A DNA stretch of 26,032 nt from a virus (lineage: Duplodnaviria > Heunggongvirae > Uroviricota > Caudoviricetes), in the IMG/VR virus record IMGVR_UViG_2565956624_000001, positions 1 through 26,032 of that record; one strand, 5' to 3'. Below, piece after piece: positions 1,985 through 20,474 of this stretch. Both the position numbers and the translations under genes were made by a program. Below the pieces are notes generated by a model. It was not told where the DNA came from. It searched no databases and was given only the letters and a program-made list of their open reading frames with translations. Position 1 is the stretch's first letter; every line of letters starts with the position of its first letter.

Positions 1985-2185
1985 ATGTTCGACAGAATAC
2001 GGGCGGCGTGCGCTTATGTTACTGGGACCGTAACCGCTTTTTTCGGTGCGATAACCATAAATGACGTTGCCGTCTTCGTGGGTATCCTATCAACCATTGG
2101 CACATTTGCCGTTAATTATTACTTTAAATCACAGGAGAACAAGCGAGCGCAAGAGGAACACGACGCGCGAATGGGGAATAAGTAA
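1985..2185 (+). CDS. holin, class II / pinholin-like
   Basis: ATG 1985 with GGAGGT 6 nt upstream; 66 aa; two hydrophobic segments and a charged C-terminal tail ([19 protein letters not shown]); sits directly before the endolysin. Resembles phage 21 S-type holins from memory. Confidence 0.7.
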
Positions 2186-2186
2186 C

Positions 2187-2678
2187 ATGATTAGCCAATC
2201 GCTGAAAAACAAAATTGTTGCGGCGGCGGCTGGTGGGGCGATCGCTATTGCGGCGGTGATGATTAAGCCATTAGAGGGCGTGGAATACGATCCTTATCGT
2301 GATGTTGTTGGTGTATGGACTGTTTGCTATGGTCACACCGGAAAAGACATCATGTTGGGCAAGACTTACACGCAATCAGAATGCGATGCTTTGTTAAATA
2401 AAGATCTACACAAGACCGCAAAAGCGATTGACCCATATATCAAAGTCGAAGTATCAGATTTTACCCGCGCAGCACTTTATTCATTCGCCTATAACGTAGG
2501 CGCAACCAACTTCAAAACATCAACCTTATTAAAGCTACTCAATGACGGCAAGAAATCAGAAGCGTGCGCACAGCTTAAACGCTGGGTATACGCTGGCGGT
2601 AAGAAGTGGCAAGGCCTGGTAAACCGCCGTGATGTTGAATATGCCGTTTGCGAATGGGGGGAAACGTGGACAAGGTGA
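2187..2678 (+). CDS. SAR endolysin (T4-lysozyme-like, phage 21 R / P1 Lyz type)
   Basis: ATG 2187 two nt after the holin stop. Gly/Ala-rich N-terminal signal-anchor ([18 protein letters not shown]) followed by [23 protein letters not shown]...[11 protein letters not shown], remembered as close to phage 21 R. Confidence 0.88.
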
Positions 2679-3136
2679 AGGCGTTAATTATCGCCGCTGT
2701 TGTTTGCATCATTGCCAGCCTTACAGCCGTAACATGCCATTACCAGAGTGAGGCGACAAGGTTACAGGAAGAATTAACGACCACGCAAGGCGCACTGAAA
2801 ACAGCAAGTAACACTATTCAGCAGATGAAGGAGCGAAACGCCGAACTGTCAAAACTTGATAAGAGGTATCACGATGAGATTAAAGCTATCAGATCTGACA
2901 TTGCCGATCTGCGCACTGGCATTGATAACGGCACTATCAGGCTGCGCGTCAACGCAATACCCGTGCGAGTGTCCGACTCCGCAGGAACCGCCAGCCGCAT
3001 TGATGGAGCCACCTGCCAACTCTCTAAATCAGCTGAATCAGCTTATCTATCCCTCAGAGAACAACTAAAAACGAAAGACGCACAGATCACTGGCCTACAG
3101 GACTACATCAAAACGCAGTGCTTACGCAAAGAATAA
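2648..3136 (+). CDS. Rz-like i-spanin
   Basis: N-terminal TM ([17 protein letters not shown]) then coiled-coil periplasmic domain; overlaps the endolysin 3' end; contains the embedded Rz1 frame. Exact start (2648, 2654 or later) uncertain. Confidence 0.75.
2874..3068 (+). CDS. Rz1-like o-spanin (lipoprotein) embedded in Rz in the +1 frame
   Basis: ATG 2874 with AAGAGG 7 nt upstream; lipobox LSGC; proline-rich mature part ([18 protein letters not shown]); fully nested in Rz. Confidence 0.75.
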   Translation: MRLKLSDLTLPICALALITALSGCASTQYPCECPTPQEPPAALMEPPANSLNQLNQLIYPSENN

Positions 3137-13937: not shown

Positions 13938-13962
13938 GGGGCCATTTGGCCCCTTTTCTTTT
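13938..13962 (+). terminator. intrinsic terminator after the major tail gene
   Basis: GGGGCC-ATTT-GGCCCC hairpin followed by TTTTCTTTT. Confidence 0.65.
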
Positions 13963-13974
13963 AAGGTGAATACT

Positions 13975-14673
13975 ATGATCCATGTTCGTACAGGACAATT
14001 TGCTGCCGTGGTGAACGGTAAGCGCTATGAGTTTAATCCTTGCTTTGCTGCGATGGCTAAAATCGGCAACGATAGTGAGCTTGTCGAATATTTCGCACTT
14101 ATCCACGGCGGCAAATATCCATCACGATTGCCAGCAGATCCAGACCTACGCAATCGCATTCTGGCGCGGTGTTATGGTGAAATAGTTCAGACATCAATGC
14201 ACATCCTGAAATGTTGCTCAGACGACGAAATAGGCCCGTTATTGGGCGAATGCTGGTTTACTCCTTCGGGTAAGTTAAAGTTAAAGCCCGGATTAATGCC
14301 GATCGAGGATATCATCACGCTTGCGCAGCACTGCATGTACCACGGTCTTATTGGTGATGGCCCGGAAGAAGAGTCCGGGGAAATCCCGGAAGGGGAATAT
14401 AAGCCGACTTTTAACGTCCTTGAATTCGTCTATTCTGCCGTTGCTCACCTGGGCTTGTCAGAATCGGAAGCATGGAATATGACAATGACCGGATATAGGG
14501 CCGCTGTACGCGCTAAAACGCCGCCAGACGAAAGAAACGAGAAAAGTAAGCCAAACATTCACATAAATAAACGTGCTTATGACGAGCAAATGGAGGCCGC
14601 TAAAAAGGCACTAGAAAGAATGAAAAATCGTGAGCAAGAAAAGCCCGGTAGATCCGGGCGTTTTGCTAATTGA
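13975..14673 (+). CDS. tail assembly chaperone (putative)
   Basis: Track ORF 13966-14673; ATG 13975 with AAGGTGA upstream; position between major tail and tape measure. No frameshift partner ORF is visible. Confidence 0.4.
   Translation: MIHVRTGQFAAVVNGKRYEFNPCFAAMAKIGNDSELVEYFALIHGGKYPSRLPADPDLRNRILARCYGEIVQTSMHILKCCSDDEIGPLLGECWFTPSGKLKLKPGLMPIEDIITLAQHCMYHGLIGDGPEEESGEIPEGEYKPTFNVLEFVYSAVAHLGLSESEAWNMTMTGYRAAVRAKTPPDERNEKSKPNIHINKRAYDEQMEAAKKALERMKNREQEKPGRSGRFAN
14643..14666 (-). terminator. hairpin likely terminating the minus-strand lipoprotein operon, embedded in the 3' end of the chaperone gene
   Basis: GCCCGG-TAGAT-CCGGGC stem; on the minus strand it is followed by TTTTCTT, on the plus strand by GTTTTGC. 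Confidence 0.45.
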
Positions 14674-15040
14674 AATCTTTAATTGCTGTACCTGGTGAAC
14701 TGTGTGTGATTGTATTGTATACAGACTTTGCCTTACTGCGATCTTTCCATTCTTTTAGGATGCAGTTATCAAACTTTGCGATAACCCTTGAAGGGGATAA
14801 TTCTTCAACATCCATGTAAGTAAATCCTATCGTGCTGGTTACTGAATACCATACGTGATAACTATAATTACCGTCATGCTCGATTCTTTGTGGTTCCCCC
14901 ATTATTTTATTCACTTGCTCACAAGTCATTCCAACTTGCAAATTTTTATCAGCTAACTTAACGAAATCAGTTGATCTTGCGCACCCTGTAAGAGCTAAAG
15001 CCATAACACCAATGAGAACCGCTTTGATTATTTTTTTCAT
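14666..15040 (-). CDS. lipoprotein with BamE/SmpA-OmlA-like region (moron)
   Basis: Signal peptide plus lipobox LTGC; segment LQVGMTCEQVNKIMGEP resembles the BamE-type core from memory; AAGGGG upstream of the ATG; antisense to flanking tail genes. Confidence 0.55.
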   Translation of the reverse strand: MKKIIKAVLIGVMALALTGCARSTDFVKLADKNLQVGMTCEQVNKIMGEPQRIEHDGNYSYHVWYSVTSTIGFTYMDVEELSPSRVIAKFDNCILKEWKDRSKAKSVYNTITHSSPGTAIKDFN

Positions 15041-15050
15041 GATTTACCCC

Positions 15051-15710
15051 TTAATTCCAGTTGCAAGCGTTTTTCACTTTGTCGATGTGGTTATAAAGAC
15101 CATCAATGTTAAACACTGCTTTCTCAATGTCGCCAGCTTCCGGCACTACTTCAATGATGAATTGTTTTTCGTTAACCAGTTTTTTAATCATTGGGATGGC
15201 TTTTTTGCCGTCCCATAATCCAAGAGCTTTATAATTAGTTGACCGCCACCACTCAGTAGCTACAGCTTTGTGAACGCCGATCCGGTAGTTAATATAAGTA
15301 GTGTCCCCGGCGTCAGTTACATGGTGTGACCATGCTACGAACATTTTTGTTTTATTACCCTGGCAAGCGATTGTTAATACCGGTTTATTCTTATCCTGTG
15401 CCTTCAGTGTCGGGAAAGCATCAAGACTTCCGCTGAATTGTTCTGCTTTCACAAAAAGGAATACGTTTTTTGCGTCCTGCATATCATCTTTTCTTTCAAC
15501 TACAAGCCACTGTTTACCAGCATTTTCTTTTTCTAACTGTGCATCGTATGCGGCTTGTTTTGCTTGTTGTTCTGCAAGCCATTTAGCATTTTTCTCTGCT
15601 AATGCTTGTTGCTCTTGATTGGTCACTATAGGCGCTTTTTCATTATCCTCATTGCAACCAACCAGACCCAATACCGCCGCAATCATTGCCACTTTTGCTA
15701 ACCGTTTCAT
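15051..15710 (-). CDS. lipoprotein, function unknown (moron)
   Basis: Signal peptide plus lipobox LVGC (MKRLAKVAMIAAVLGLVGCNE); 219 aa; first gene of a two-gene minus-strand operon. Confidence 0.55.
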   Translation of the reverse strand: MKRLAKVAMIAAVLGLVGCNEDNEKAPIVTNQEQQALAEKNAKWLAEQQAKQAAYDAQLEKENAGKQWLVVERKDDMQDAKNVFLFVKAEQFSGSLDAFPTLKAQDKNKPVLTIACQGNKTKMFVAWSHHVTDAGDTTYINYRIGVHKAVATEWWRSTNYKALGLWDGKKAIPMIKKLVNEKQFIIEVVPEAGDIEKAVFNIDGLYNHIDKVKNACNWN

Positions 15711-15756
15711 AACCCACCACGCTAACTTGATTTACTGACCATTCCCTTTAGCTTCC

Positions 15757-15798
15757 TTATACAAAATGGAGTCATTGAAGTAAAGCCATTTTGTATAA
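15757..15798. promoter_or_regulatory. 13-bp perfect inverted repeat in the divergent intergenic region between the lipoprotein operon and the tape measure gene
   Basis: TTATACAAAATGG (15757-15769), 16-nt spacer, CCATTTTGTATAA (15786-15798); overlaps an AT-rich -10-like TATAAAAT. Confidence 0.4.
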
Positions 15799-15837: not shown

Positions 15838-18180
15838 ATGGCTACCAGTGTAGGTACAATTTATTACGAAGTTGATGCGAAAACTGGTCAACTTCTCGTT
15901 GCACAACGACAGGCAGACCAGGCCTTTGATCGTATAGAGCGCGGCGCAAAACAGGCTGACCGCCAGGTAAACACCCTGAAAACATCCATCAAGGCACTGA
16001 CCAGGGTTATCCATCTGCTAATTGCTGCGGAGGCTGTGCGCCAATTTATGGATATGGCGGAGCAAGCAAAAATGCTTCGCGTAAAAATCAAAATGCTTAC
16101 GGGCGATGCGGAGTCCGCCGGACGGGTTTTCGACGGCCTGAAAGCAATATCCAGGGAGACGGGGCAGAGCCTGAAAGATACTGGCGAATTATGGCAAGGC
16201 CTGGCTATCTCACTAAAAAACACCTCCGCTACGGAAGGGCAATTGCTTAACCTGGTTGGCACTATTCAGAAAATGGGTGCATTAGGCGGCGCGTCAGCGG
16301 AACAGATGTCTAACTCAATGCGTCAATTCCGTCAGTCTATCGACGGCGGTGTTCTTCGTGCCGAAGAATTTAACAGCCTGCTTGAAAATACGCCGACCAT
16401 CGTACAAACAATGGCCCGCCATATGGGATTATCAATGGGCCAGTTCCGCGCCGAAATGCTGGACGGCAAGATCACGGCTGAAAGGATGGTTAACGCAATA
16501 CAGGCGGCTACGCAGGAAACAAACGATAAGTTTGCTCAGTTGCCGCGCACATCCGGCATGGCTATCAATGAGCTTAAAGTAGAAATTATGGGCCTTGTTG
16601 AGCAGTTGGATGATCTTTTTGGCGTGTCAGATGGCGTTGTTTCAGCTATCGACTTGATCACGAAAGGCGTTAAAGGGCTTGGCGATGGCGCTAAATTCGC
16701 TAAAACCTGCTTCGACACACTCAAAACGGCTGGTAGCGAATTTATCGACATGTTTGATGATGTGGCTGTTAAGGCTGGAGAGGTGGCAGAGAAGATCATC
16801 GCAATGGTGACGCCAATCAAGGCGCTAATGGATGGCTATAAATGGATGAAGGAGGTAGTAGGAGAGCAAACCGACGAATATAACAGCAACTACGAGAAGA
16901 AATACGGGAAGACCGTTGGCAAGGTCATGCAACTACAGGATGATCTGACCGCAGCAATCCAGGCTACAGAAGAAGCAAGGAAAAATGAACAGAATGCTGC
17001 CAATGACGGAGCGATTACCGGATTCGACAAGCCAGTAGACAAGCCGAAAAAACAGAAAAAAGAGAAGAAATCGGAAGCTGATCGGCTTGGTGACAAAGGT
17101 ATAAGCGTTTCTGATCAGTACAACAAAGACGCCGCCGCCATGCGCAAAGCGTTGGAGAACGGCAAGGCCATTGATGCTGCATTTGCCCAGGGTAAAATCA
17201 CGCTCCTTGAGTACCGCGCCGCGCAAAAAGGGATCGGCAAGGAACTGAAAGAAGAATTAGCACAAATTCCGGTAGATGAATTGCGTGATAAATGGTCACA
17301 AATAGTAAGCCCGATGGATCAGCTAAAAGGCGAAGTTGACCCCATCCAGCAGGCGCAAAATGAATGGGCCATCCGTAAGCAAATGCTTATAGACCTGGGC
17401 GCTACTGAAGCGCAACAGAAACAGGAATTGTTAGCCTATGAGCAACAGATCCGCGATCTGAAATGGGAACAATGGCAGGCGCAAAGCGACACAAACGGCC
17501 TTATCGGTGATTGTGTTAATGGCCTTAAAGGCGGAATGAGTAATGCGCTTGTTGGCCTGTTAAACGGCACTCAATCATTGAGTGATGTTTTTGCTAACTT
17601 AGGAAGCAATATACTCGGCAATATCGGTAACAGACTCTCAGACATAGCTGCAAACTGGATAGCAGATCAGATCATGATGGAGACACAAAGCAAGGCCACG
17701 CAAACAAGTACAACAGCAAGCGCGGTAGCAGCTCAGGGAAGCATTGCTGCGGCGGCGGCCCCAGCAGCGGCGGCAACTGCGGCGTCAACTGGCGGTAGCT
17801 GGGCGGCGGCTGGTTCGGCGGCGCTCACTGCGATCATGTCGCTGGCTACGTCAATTTTCGGCGGCGGTCGCTTTAATGGTGGTAGCGTCATTGGTGGTAA
17901 TATGTACCGCGTAGGGGAACACAACAGGCCGGAGCTATTCCAGACATCTAACGGCAATCAATATATGATCCCTGGCGAGAACGGCAGAGTTATTCCGGGC
18001 CGTGATATTGGCGGCGGTGGCGGTATTAGTATGCCTGTCAGTATCAGCATTCAGACCACGAACGGATTCAGCGACGAAGACAGCCGCAGACTTGAATTAA
18101 CAATGGAACGTGTAGCCATGAAAATGATAACAAGGGAATCTCAAAGACCAGGCGGAATGTTGCAACCTCGCCGCAAATAA
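15838..18180 (+). CDS. tail tape measure protein
   Basis: 780 aa; largely helical/coiled-coil composition with a Gly/Ala-rich hydrophobic segment (AAAAPAAAATAASTGGSWAAAGSAALTAIMSLATSIFGGG); located just upstream of the gpM/L/K/I/J homologues. Confidence 0.85.
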   Translation: MATSVGTIYYEVDAKTGQLLVAQRQADQAFDRIERGAKQADRQVNTLKTSIKALTRVIHLLIAAEAVRQFMDMAEQAKMLRVKIKMLTGDAESAGRVFDGLKAISRETGQSLKDTGELWQGLAISLKNTSATEGQLLNLVGTIQKMGALGGASAEQMSNSMRQFRQSIDGGVLRAEEFNSLLENTPTIVQTMARHMGLSMGQFRAEMLDGKITAERMVNAIQAATQETNDKFAQLPRTSGMAINELKVEIMGLVEQLDDLFGVSDGVVSAIDLITKGVKGLGDGAKFAKTCFDTLKTAGSEFIDMFDDVAVKAGEVAEKIIAMVTPIKALMDGYKWMKEVVGEQTDEYNSNYEKKYGKTVGKVMQLQDDLTAAIQATEEARKNEQNAANDGAITGFDKPVDKPKKQKKEKKSEADRLGDKGISVSDQYNKDAAAMRKALENGKAIDAAFAQGKITLLEYRAAQKGIGKELKEELAQIPVDELRDKWSQIVSPMDQLKGEVDPIQQAQNEWAIRKQMLIDLGATEAQQKQELLAYEQQIRDLKWEQWQAQSDTNGLIGDCVNGLKGGMSNALVGLLNGTQSLSDVFANLGSNILGNIGNRLSDIAANWIADQIMMETQSKATQTSTTASAVAAQGSIAAAAAPAAAATAASTGGSWAAAGSAALTAIMSLATSIFGGGRFNGGSVIGGNMYRVGEHNRPELFQTSNGNQYMIPGENGRVIPGRDIGGGGGISMPVSISIQTTNGFSDEDSRRLELTMERVAMKMITRESQRPGGMLQPRRK

Positions 18181-18184
18181 ACTA

Positions 18185-18214
18185 AACCCCGGTGCAATGC
18201 CGGGGTTATTTTTC
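18185..18214. terminator. intrinsic terminator after the tape measure gene, possibly bidirectional
   Basis: AACCCCGG-TGCAATG-CCGGGGTT hairpin followed by ATTTTTC; the reverse strand is also U-rich after the stem. Confidence 0.6.
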
Positions 18215-18266: not shown

Positions 18267-18521
18267 TCACTTATGAGTGCCTTTCACGCCACATAACTTG
18301 TTATAGGCATGGTGCTCAACAATTAACCAAACCTTCAAATCTTCGCTAAACAGCCTCCAATCAAGATTGATATCCATTTTGTATCCGTAACCGTCGCGTA
18401 ACTTTTTGGGGTAAACTTCTTTTCTCAGAAAGGCTTTAAGTAATTCCTTACCTTTCTTGATGATCCGATCCTGTGCGTTTTTCTGTGCTTTCAGATTTCT
18501 GTCAATCGCTACCAGTTTCAT
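18267..18521 (-). CDS. small basic protein, unknown function (moron)
   Basis: Track ORF, 84 aa, lysine-rich; GGGGTGAG upstream; C-terminus ...WLIVEHHAYNKLCGVKGTHK. A RelE/YafQ-type toxin was considered but is not supported. Confidence 0.45.
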   Translation of the reverse strand: MKLVAIDRNLKAQKNAQDRIIKKGKELLKAFLRKEVYPKKLRDGYGYKMDINLDWRLFSEDLKVWLIVEHHAYNKLCGVKGTHK

Positions 18522-18538
18522 AACTCACCCCATCATCC

Positions 18539-18694
18539 TTAGTTAAGTGCCTTCAGGAAGAAGTCCCGGTATTCATCTTCTTTCGCATTCATCATGAATT
18601 GACCGTATTTGAATGCGTCGTCGAAACCCTTAACGATTGCTATTTCCACTTGTTCGAATGCGTTATTTAGCATTACTACTACATAGCGTTTCAT
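18539..18694 (-). CDS. small protein (51 aa), upstream partner of the 84-aa ORF
   Basis: Hand-translated: MKRYVVVMLNNAFEQVEIAIVKGFDDAFKYGQFMMNAKEDEYRDFFLKALN; GGAGG 8 nt upstream of the ATG; stop lies 17 nt before the next start. Confidence 0.35.
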   Translation of the reverse strand: MKRYVVVMLNNAFEQVEIAIVKGFDDAFKYGQFMMNAKEDEYRDFFLKALN

Positions 18695-18782
18695 TTTGGG
18701 CCTCCTTCGTTGGTACTACTTTCTTCTTGCTTTCTATATACATCTTGTTGCGTGCTATGTGAAGCCATTTTGTAAACTAGCT

Positions 18783-18829: not shown

Positions 18830-18863
18830 GATATATACAAAATGTAACTTGTGGGGGGGTTTT

Positions 18864-19570: not shown

Positions 19571-19819
19571 CTATAAGTTATCACGCAGATAATTAACGCC
19601 CTTATCAGTGACGAATGAATGGTTAACCTGGTTTTCATCCGTCATGATGATGAATAACTTTTCATGTAGGTATTTCGCTTTCGGGTACAGCGTTAAACAG
19701 ACCTGGTACAGTATCCCGCGCTCAATCAGCAAATCAATAAATTCGTGTTCATGATAACCGATGAGGCGGGCGGCCTGTTTCAACGTGTACACATAATCAC
19801 CGTGATTGCGCCGCCCCAT
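19571..19819 (-). CDS. hypothetical protein, gene C of minus-strand cassette (possible helix-turn-helix)
   Basis: 82 aa; AAGGCGG upstream; segment YTLKQAARLIGYHEHEFIDLLIERGIL looks HTH-like (weak). Confidence 0.45.
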   Translation of the reverse strand: MGRRNHGDYVYTLKQAARLIGYHEHEFIDLLIERGILYQVCLTLYPKAKYLHEKLFIIMTDENQVNHSFVTDKGVNYLRDNL

Positions 19820-19828
19820 GTTGCCGCC

Positions 19829-20176
19829 TTATTTATCGAATGCTGAAAGGTTATCGATACAGAAATCTTTCGCCGCTTTTTCGTATTCGCGTTTTGCTTC
19901 TGGATCGTCAGCCGGGAAACCTTTTGCGTGTATTTCACCAGGGCAAGACTGGTCCATAGAATCTGCATAATAAGCAGTGAAGCTACCATTAATATCTTTC
20001 GGGTTCATATCTTCCACCTCATCAACTATATGTACCGGATTAGCAGCATATTTCACTGGATGGCCTAAACTACATTCAAGAATCCTGCCTTCTTCCAGGG
20101 CTACTTCTTCGCTATCAAATAATCCGAAACACTCCTTGCTACCACTTAACCACACATCAAGACTGTATTTTTTCAT
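19829..20176 (-). CDS. hypothetical protein, gene B of minus-strand cassette
   Basis: Track ORF 19829-20278; internal ATG at 20176 (MKKYSLDVWLSG...) has GAGG upstream, giving 115 aa. Confidence 0.45.
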   Translation of the reverse strand: MKKYSLDVWLSGSKECFGLFDSEEVALEEGRILECSLGHPVKYAANPVHIVDEVEDMNPKDINGSFTAYYADSMDQSCPGEIHAKGFPADDPEAKREYEKAAKDFCIDNLSAFDK

Positions 20177-20345
20177 TTTTGTTAGCCTCATATTTGACAG
20201 GTTCGATCTGGTATCCCAAAAGGCGGTCATCCTCAGCAAGTAAAAGCGCGTCAACCAATGCTTCACCCTCGTCGTCATACAGGGCGATAACCTTTTCCCT
20301 ACCGTCTGTCATGAATACCGTCAACTTCCATAGCTTTTCAGTCAT
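20157..20345 (-). CDS. hypothetical small acidic protein, gene A of minus-strand cassette
   Basis: Track ORF 20157-20465; ATG at 20345 has GGAGG 8 nt upstream (MTEKLWKLTVFMTDGREK..., 62 aa); overlaps the gene B start by 20 nt. Confidence 0.4.
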   Translation of the reverse strand: MTEKLWKLTVFMTDGREKVIALYDDEGEALVDALLLAEDDRLLGYQIEPVKYEANKNEKIQS

Positions 20346-20474
20346 AACGCACCTCCGCGCCATTTTGTTAACTATGCTTCCGTTTGAGTAAAATATACAT
20401 ATTGTAAAAACCGCGATCAATCCATTTTGGTATGATTTAGCGTGACGCAGATCACAGAATGACAAGGTGAGAAA

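Follow-up and report, generated by a model that had tools for sequence, protein, structure and literature searches.

Why does a plus-strand phage tail module carry two lipoprotein genes on its minus strand? The question is raised by positions 1 to 26,032 of IMG/VR record IMGVR_UViG_2565956624_000001, the 26,032-nt stretch of DNA analysed here (the window), which belongs to an mEp021-like (mEpimmI) temperate siphophage or prophage of E. coli. Gene 1 (15051-15710, minus strand) encodes a predicted VasI/TagO-family lipoprotein of 219 amino acids (aa) and gene 2 (14666-15040, minus strand) a predicted BamE/OsmE/BLIP-fold lipoprotein of 124 aa, and the pair lies between a DUF6246 gene and the tape measure protein gene. 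We are highly confident of the anatomy of this cassette and of its status as a horizontally acquired moron in a dedicated slot of mEpimmI phages. Our best explanation for the whole, a moron cassette whose two lipoproteins protect the lysogen against incoming phages, is given a probability of about 0.45.

Two predicted lipoproteins encoded antisense to the tail genes

The open reading frames (ORFs) lie exactly where the original prediction had placed two minus-strand genes. They are separated by a 10-nt spacer (15041-15050, minus strand; TAA-GGGGTAAATC-ATG) that contains a Shine-Dalgarno-like AAGGGG, pointing to an operon arrangement; together with a single terminator and a foreign composition, this agrees with the proposed antisense two-gene operon. 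The cassette is indeed AT-richer than its flanks, with a GC content of 0.38-0.42 compared with 0.47-0.53 outside, and the GC skew is reversed across it. Both ORFs are genuine genes rather than chance ORFs, judging from PHROG matches (phrog_1848, 4.5e-58; phrog_18614, 8.9e-64), the Pfam VasI match of gene 1 and the ratio of nonsynonymous to synonymous substitution rates (dN/dS). This ratio is 0.20-0.26 for gene 1 against copies with a dS of ~0.12, and 0.07 for gene 2 against the copy in phage mEp013 (dS 1.2), values by which both genes are under purifying selection.

The signal peptide and lipobox claimed for each product were recovered in a rule-based check (lipobox [LVI][ASTVI][GAS]C, with its Cys at about position 15-35). 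The N-termini are MKRLAKVAMIAAVLGLVGC for gene 1 and MKKIIKAVLIGVMALALTGC for gene 2, which give signal peptides MKRLAKVAMIAAVLG-LVGC (residues 1-19, 15710-15654, minus strand; Cys19) and MKKIIKAVLIGVMALA-LTGC (residues 1-20, 15040-14981, minus strand; Cys20). Each has K/R among its first seven residues (n-region), followed by a hydrophobic core. In the homologue alignment every member of the 219-aa family has the lipobox Cys, and in the 124-aa family it is kept in all rows but one N-terminally truncated fragment. In E. coli, a residue other than Asp at position +2 leads to Lol-dependent sorting to the outer membrane. With Asn and Ala at this position, both lipoproteins should be sorted to the outer membrane, facing the periplasm.

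Gene 1, which the original prediction had left unidentified, is assigned to the VasI/TagO family by its match to Pfam VasI (PF11319; E 1.2e-15, 58.1 bits against a gathering threshold of 26.5) over residues 55-218. RefSeq names copies of gene 1 'type VI secretion system-associated protein TagO'. Compared with TagO/VasI proper (the VC_A0118 family, PF11319, TIGR03360), however, gene 1 matches the domain but not the equivalog, scoring 47.4 bits against the NCBIfam TIGR03360 cut-off of 124.2, and it sits in a prophage tail module, with no type VI secretion system (T6SS) genes among the scanned window ORFs. The 'TagO' label on prophage genes is a domain-level call and not evidence of a T6SS. The gene 1 family comprises twelve 90%-identity clusters, at least 54% identical within, all from E. 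coli or metagenomes. All of these homologues carry PF11319, and the next relatives outside the clade are at most 35% identical. A profile word search added no further distant relatives, which marks the clade as isolated, and scanning the VasI family alignment against genome contigs also returned no relative.

The AlphaFold2 model of gene 1 (predicted local distance difference test score, pLDDT, 69.7) has a disordered linker, a helix at residues 31-63 and a β-sandwich at residues 68-216, and fold comparison found this sandwich to be IalB-like. A fold search of BFVD with the model returned uncharacterised phage proteins only, and a Protein Data Bank (PDB) sequence search gave zero matches for either gene 1 or gene 2. 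Cys116 and Cys216 are invariant in the homologue alignment, and this pair, together with a C-terminal ACNW motif, aligns with the 29%-identical VasI-domain protein of P2-like phages, so a periplasmic disulfide between Cys116 and Cys216 is likely. Homologues (203-224 aa in total) keep the sandwich but differ in how long the helical segment is, which fits a spacer or stalk role for the helical stretch.

Gene 2 had been likened to BamE because of the segment LQVGMTCEQVNKIMGEP, which forms residues 34-50 of the 124-aa protein. At the level of superfamily and fold the likeness stands, but the protein is not a BamE orthologue: it scores 18.9 bits against the Pfam BamE gathering threshold of 23.2, over residues 33-51 only, is likewise sub-threshold for DUF7738 and OsmE, and belongs to a narrow prophage-borne family. 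Among 1.84 billion representatives, an exhaustive profile search picked up no more than two relatives below 1e-10, along with 27 remote matches. When the window protein and 21 matches were scanned, 18 of the 22 sequences were Pfam BamE members and the others DUF3192, DUF3862 or BLIP. The AlphaFold2 core (pLDDT 85-95) is helix-helix-strand-strand-(helix)-strand-strand, and comparison with BamE showed the BamE-type two-helix plus β-sheet fold to be present in the model; model confidence is low for the C-terminal tail (from about residue 101). Gene 2 also has a conserved Cys40/Cys93 pair. Within the BamE (PF04355), BLIP (PF07467) and DUF3862 superfamily it differs by this Cys pair of its own, its C-terminal tail and its sub-threshold scores. 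On these comparisons we take gene 2 to be prophage cargo of a narrow family and not a housekeeping chromosomal bamE, and we infer that both products are disulfide-stabilised binding domains.

A multi-allelic slot between the DUF6246 and tape measure genes

Is the cassette peculiar to this phage? Comparing related genomes for its presence or absence gave a clear answer. The census covered 75 IMG/VR loci found through DUF6246, plus phage and E. coli loci. For 13 distant relatives, whose DUF6246 is about 29-40% identical, the gap between the DUF6246 and tape measure genes is -12 to 166 bp and the site is empty; in all 55 close relatives, a gap of 653-1329 bp is filled by minus-strand cargo. From this distribution the empty junction is judged to be the ancestral state. 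About a dozen cargo combinations were found at the slot. Reading from the promoter side, a small 28-aa ORF followed by a 137-aa periplasmic protein is present at 16 loci, VasI followed by the BamE-like protein at 10, the small ORF followed by a 35-aa transmembrane (TM) protein and a 2-TM protein at 8, and VasI followed by a 106-aa protein without signal peptide at another 8. A second periplasmic protein occurs in various combinations at 7 loci (2 with BamE-like), and VasI is alone at 2. Single loci carry the BamE-like gene alone (phage mEp013), the 137-aa periplasmic protein followed by the 35-aa TM protein and the BamE-like protein, a 165-aa periplasmic protein, and a 245-aa lipoprotein. VasI and BamE-like genes therefore occur together at 10 loci, VasI without BamE-like at 10 and BamE-like without VasI at 4, which rules out an obligate two-component pair; the combinatorial cargo argues that genes 1 and 2 are independent modules. 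We also considered whether cargo is matched to tape measure type and rejected this, as one tape measure N-terminal type bears several different cargos.

First-position cargos with unrelated mature parts share a near-identical ribosome-binding site (RBS) and first ~48 nt (MKRLAKV...) as far as the cleavage or lipobox site, where they diverge. Matching signal-peptide DNA is likewise seen for the BamE-like protein and the 245-aa lipoprotein. This suggests that the signal-peptide coding region serves as a recombination arm for exchanging exported domains. The common RBS and signal-peptide DNA was seen at 15654-15710 in the window, at L009:4579-4650 and L007:5001-5060 among the census loci, and in L056, the locus with the 245-aa lipoprotein.

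The slot has sharp boundaries. On the left is a hairpin, GCCCGG-TAGAT-CCGGGC (14643-14659), which resembles a terminator on either strand. It is contained in the 3' end of the DUF6246 gene and has a minus-strand T-run, in line with the earlier claim of a terminator embedded in the end of the upstream gene. A scan of both strands called the hairpin and T-run on the minus strand at 14659-14635, and its RNA fold has a free energy of -15.5 kcal/mol (z -2.7). The hairpin is annotated as a terminator in mEp021, mEp554 and mEp013, and is unchanged in 7 of 7 slot variants, with homology stopping just past it. In alignments, homology among slot variants resumes at about 15731. Just beyond lies a candidate sigma-70 promoter on the minus strand (15756-15784), picked out by eye: -35 TTTACT (15784-15779), a 17-nt spacer and -10 TATAAG (15761-15756). 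The alignment columns holding both elements are conserved in every slot variant, and the -10 element is TATAAG in the window and TATAAA in most other variants. A perfect 13-bp inverted repeat, TTATACAAAATGG-N16-CCATTTTGTATAA (15757-15798), overlaps the candidate promoter. It serves as the right-hand boundary of the slot, upstream of the tape measure gene, and all slot variants retain it. The RNA structure of this whole upstream region is no better than that of shuffled sequences (z -0.63). The repeat may be an operator or promoter element common to morons. Half-sites resembling ACAAAATGG were seen at 18374-18386, 18765-18777 and 18833-18845, in the next intergenic region between an antisense moron and the tail genes; there were 5 matches compared with 1.1 expected, and 5 was reached in 1 of 100 shuffles.

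Of the 55 slot variants, 35 have a conserved minus-strand ORF of 28 aa, MKNYYRPNEHERYADFIEEMLKALKNKK, ahead of the cargo, with a strong Shine-Dalgarno sequence (GAGGATAAGAAA-ATG). It is found at L006:3215-3330 (minus strand) and also in L039, L041 and L043, with variation at third codon positions, and is deleted in the window (about 15711-15730) and in the M1/5 type. It could encode a small regulator or leader peptide.

The cassette is thus extra DNA relative to relatives, of deviant composition and with its own terminator, as expected of a moron in the sense of Juhala and Hendrix. Parts of this picture are already familiar: a moron with envelope-protein genes at the classical moron position, and a gene 1 that RefSeq already labels. 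We did not find described the defined slot, its combinatorial cargo, the signal-peptide arm, or VasI genes recurring as prophage cargo, and a paper on the mEpimmI phage group makes no mention of the slot (PMC11893012). The flanks of the cassette are 81-86% identical to phages MagusPhagus, mEp554, mEp010, mEp044, mEp013 and mEp021, and the full 1.4-kb region is found at 99.7-99.9% identity in prophages of nine complete E. coli genomes. Counting matches over at least 80% of the length, this region is present in 14 of 5426 complete E. coli genomes, making it rare.

Both neighbours of the slot are tail-module genes on the plus strand. On the right is the tape measure protein gene (15838-18180; PF20155, 1.1e-49; phrog_1538, 2.1e-159). 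On the left is the DUF6246 gene (13966-14673; PF19759, 2.2e-54), which with the plus-strand tail tube gene (PF06199) lies upstream of the cassette. In the mEp021 record, gp57, gp58 and gp60 are labelled as virion structural proteins and the slot gene, gp63, is not. The DUF6246 gene occupies the position of the tail assembly chaperone, an identity that is positional only, and a PDB sequence search with DUF6246 returned no relative. The original prediction had the insertion taking the place of a frameshift extension of this chaperone. That idea did not hold: a G/GT-type frameshift was rejected, since DUF6246 has no in-frame XXXYYYZ slippery heptamer and no alternative-frame ORF beyond its stop, and in cargo-free relatives it abuts the tape measure gene without any extension. 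An A-run in the window copy of DUF6246 (14630-14673) is one base short, GCAAG-AAAAGCCCGG compared with GCAAGAAAAAGCCCGG in relatives. As a result 7 extra residues are translated through the hairpin (...EKPGRSGRFAN vs ...EKAR) and the gene overlaps the 124-aa gene by 8 nt; the TAG stop of the relatives is in the hairpin loop. A further palindrome with a 6-bp stem, TCCGGG-GAAAT-CCCGGA (14374-14390), lies within the DUF6246 coding sequence. The tube, DUF6246 and tape measure junctions each have a GC-rich hairpin and T-run on the plus strand (13938-13953, 14643-14659, 18185-18207), an arrangement that fits an antitermination-dependent late operon; this phage group is Nus-dependent (PMC11893012).

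What the cassette may do in the lysogen

In the explanation that we prefer, the cassette would be transcribed from its own candidate promoter in the repressed prophage, and the two lipoproteins would reside in the periplasm, each acting alone, as protein-binding blockers. The block would come after adsorption and would be aimed at the tail-tip or tape-measure conduit or at a tail-borne wall-degrading enzyme. An anti-phage role is tentatively favoured because of the position shared with HK97 gene 15, the precedent of SDIC4B, the presence of VasI genes in other morons, the inhibitor fold of gene 2 and the allelic turnover at the slot. The founding example of a moron, HK97 gene 15, is located between the genes for the tail chaperone and the tape measure. 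Its product is an exclusion protein that the prophage expresses, with a specificity mapping to the tail (PMC3594210). Gene 15 is an independent transcription unit of foreign composition (PMC3594210), and the cassette resembles it in position and composition. However, HK97 gp15 is a small inner-membrane YebO-family protein, whereas the two lipoproteins of the cassette are of outer-membrane type and belong to unrelated families, and the cassette runs antisense to the tail operon in a multi-allelic slot. SDIC4B, a protein with a VasI-like fold from Serratia and Enterobacteria defence islands, gives 10-200-fold phage protection alone (bioRxiv 10.1101/2024.01.28.577318). Like gene 1, it has a VasI-type domain and lies outside T6SS loci, on mobile or variable DNA, and either could act as a single gene (bioRxiv 10.1101/2024.01.28.577318). 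SDIC4B resembles VasI by HHpred only and is BrxR-associated, whereas gene 1 matches the VasI hidden Markov model directly. No BrxR/WYL gene or SDIC4A partner adjoins gene 1, whose neighbours are tail genes.

VasI-domain genes recur in the moron regions of temperate phages, including P2-like phages (ogr-int) and Pasteurella, Brucella and Labrenzia phages. Periplasmic protein inhibitors commonly use the BLIP/BamE fold, among them the T6SS immunity protein BtiO (fold comparison), and alleles that turn over rapidly at a single site in one host species are typical of conflict genes. T4 Sp, a periplasmic phage protein that prevents entry once adsorption has taken place, acts by inhibiting the tail lysozyme. 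A periplasmic block to entry after adsorption is also the mechanism that we favour for a BLIP-fold binder, but Sp is unlike the cassette products in being of unrelated sequence, not a lipoprotein, and from a lytic phage. T4 Spackle (Sp) is listed as a DNA-injection inhibitor (PMC11436027).

Several observations weigh against a protective role. PADLOC assigns neither protein to a defence family, there is no similarity to the characterised exclusion proteins Cor, Llp, gp15, Imm or Sp, and the link to SDIC4B is at the fold level only. The structural models come from shallow alignments and, with pLDDT about 70, are of moderate confidence. Cargo type does not follow the N-terminal type of the tape measure protein, and the slot is not exclusive to envelope proteins, the 106-aa cargo without signal peptide being frequent in second position. 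A consensus promoter scan did not call TTTACT-17-TATAAG, in which the -10 element ends in G, and the expression and function of the cassette genes are inferred.

The original prediction had pointed to Llp and Cor, phage lipoproteins that block the receptor. Masking of this kind, in which one or both products would act from the periplasm to bind and inactivate a phage receptor in the outer membrane, in the way that T5 Llp and phi80/N15 Cor inactivate FhuA, seems unlikely here, even though both are predicted outer-membrane lipoproteins. Neither product has sequence, family or fold similarity to Cor or Llp, and the slot adjoins the tape measure gene rather than a receptor-binding gene. T5 Llp has 61 aa, and products of 219 and 124 aa with a stalk are unlike it in size and build. 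In size and architecture they differ from Cor of the phi80/N15/T1 family, T5 Llp, and the exclusion lipoproteins Lpp021 and Lpp010 of the mEpimmI phages, none of which is related to them in sequence or fold. Cor does inactivate FhuA (PMC3594210, PMC11436027), and exclusion lipoproteins have been demonstrated in the mEpimmI group (PMC11893012). Those that were tested, however, are different genes, namely mEp021 gp81 and mEp010 gp116, which by their numbering lie well downstream of the slot gene mEp021_63, and mEp013 has both a type-C Lpp and the BamE-like gene (PMC11893012). It is because the group has separate exclusion lipoproteins, and because the cassette products are unrelated to Cor and Llp, that we favour a block to entry over masking of a receptor.

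The same features could be read as protection against bacterial attack, with the products acting as orphan immunity-like or shield proteins that counter periplasm-acting T6SS effectors or bacteriocins, or as modulators of the host's own T6SS. We consider this quite unlikely: what connects gene 1 with the T6SS is a family name, gene 1 is below the TIGR03360 cut-off, T6SS and effector genes are absent from the scanned ORFs of the window and from beside the other 'TagO' genes on mobile genetic elements (MGEs), and the BLIP/BamE fold is generic, BamE and OsmE scoring equal to BtiO. The role of TagO/VasI within the T6SS is itself not established (PMC13584744). Lysogenic conversion for fitness or virulence, through envelope stress (OsmE-like), serum resistance (lambda Bor-like) or host-cell interaction (IalB-like), is improbable too. 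These resemblances are at the fold level only, the complete cassette is rare among the E. coli genomes, and the exchange of numerous unrelated cargos in a single host species looks more like the behaviour of arms-race genes than of a trait for niche adaptation. A role in the lytic cycle, in spanin-like lysis or tail assembly, might be read from the location inside the tail module and from the fact that o-spanins are outer-membrane lipoproteins. Such a role, or that of a decaying, functionless passenger, is very improbable. The cassette genes are antisense to the late operon, missing in distant relatives and replaceable by unrelated cargo, and purifying selection on both argues against decay. 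A spanin or lysis function was rejected, as the endolysin and Rz genes of the window lie elsewhere, at 2061-3136.

Beyond protection of the lysogen by this one cassette, VasI/TagO-domain proteins might form a widespread MGE-borne periplasmic barrier against envelope-puncturing machines, with the slot as a 'plug-and-play' export site; this broader proposal is speculative and we regard it as doubtful. It would cover siphophage tail-module slots, P2-like ogr-int regions, plasmid remnants and defence islands, and would be directed at phage tails and perhaps the T6SS. If true, a fixed promoter, RBS, signal-peptide N-terminus and terminator would let recombination swap mature domains, and the T6SS accessory TagO would gain a testable function, the binding or gating of trans-envelope conduits. 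A defined multi-allelic slot in gut-prevalent temperate phages of E. coli is also a natural library of envelope-acting prophage genes for screening. Within it, a TagO/VasI-family protein can be studied through single-gene phenotypes that are easy to test, such as phage plating and survival of T6SS or colicin attack, and the isolated phage mEp013, with the BamE-like gene alone, is an existing experimental system.

Other antisense genes and VasI-domain genes on mobile elements

Among the other mobile-element loci, a VasI-domain gene lies beside a zinc-ribbon protein gene and a hok/gef-type toxin gene in two P2-like phages (L091:3273-4166, Xuanwuvirus P88_4B11, and L013:3695-4588) and in a P2 remnant on the enterotoxigenic E. 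coli plasmid pCss165Kan (L093:5040-5606). The VasI-domain protein of P2-like phages has 297 aa, a Sec signal and three Cys-containing repeats, and in P88_4B11 its gene is at the ogr-int position. RefSeq names the P2-like and plasmid copies TagO as well, with no T6SS genes nearby.

Two more antisense blocks interrupt the tail genes of the window. A strong hairpin terminator (18185-18214) follows the tape measure stop codon, and directly after this gene is a second antisense moron (18267-18694, minus strand) encoding an 84-aa ParE-like toxin (PF24732, 9e-12), preceded by a 51-aa ORF for a putative antitoxin. The third block (19571-20465, minus strand), between tail genes, encodes an 82-aa KilAC/ANT-domain protein (PF03374), along with 149-aa and 102-aa ORFs that have no family match. 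The C-terminus of J is at most 58% identical to that of any phage J. Beyond the window end, in the prophage of E. coli 2017C-4173W12, an 81-aa gene (L090:11874-12119, minus strand) directly follows J, where a Cor-like gene would be expected; its product has a Sec-type signal peptide, MKKLIVACILSALSFGAFA/S, with no clear lipobox. This prophage is integrated in abgT.

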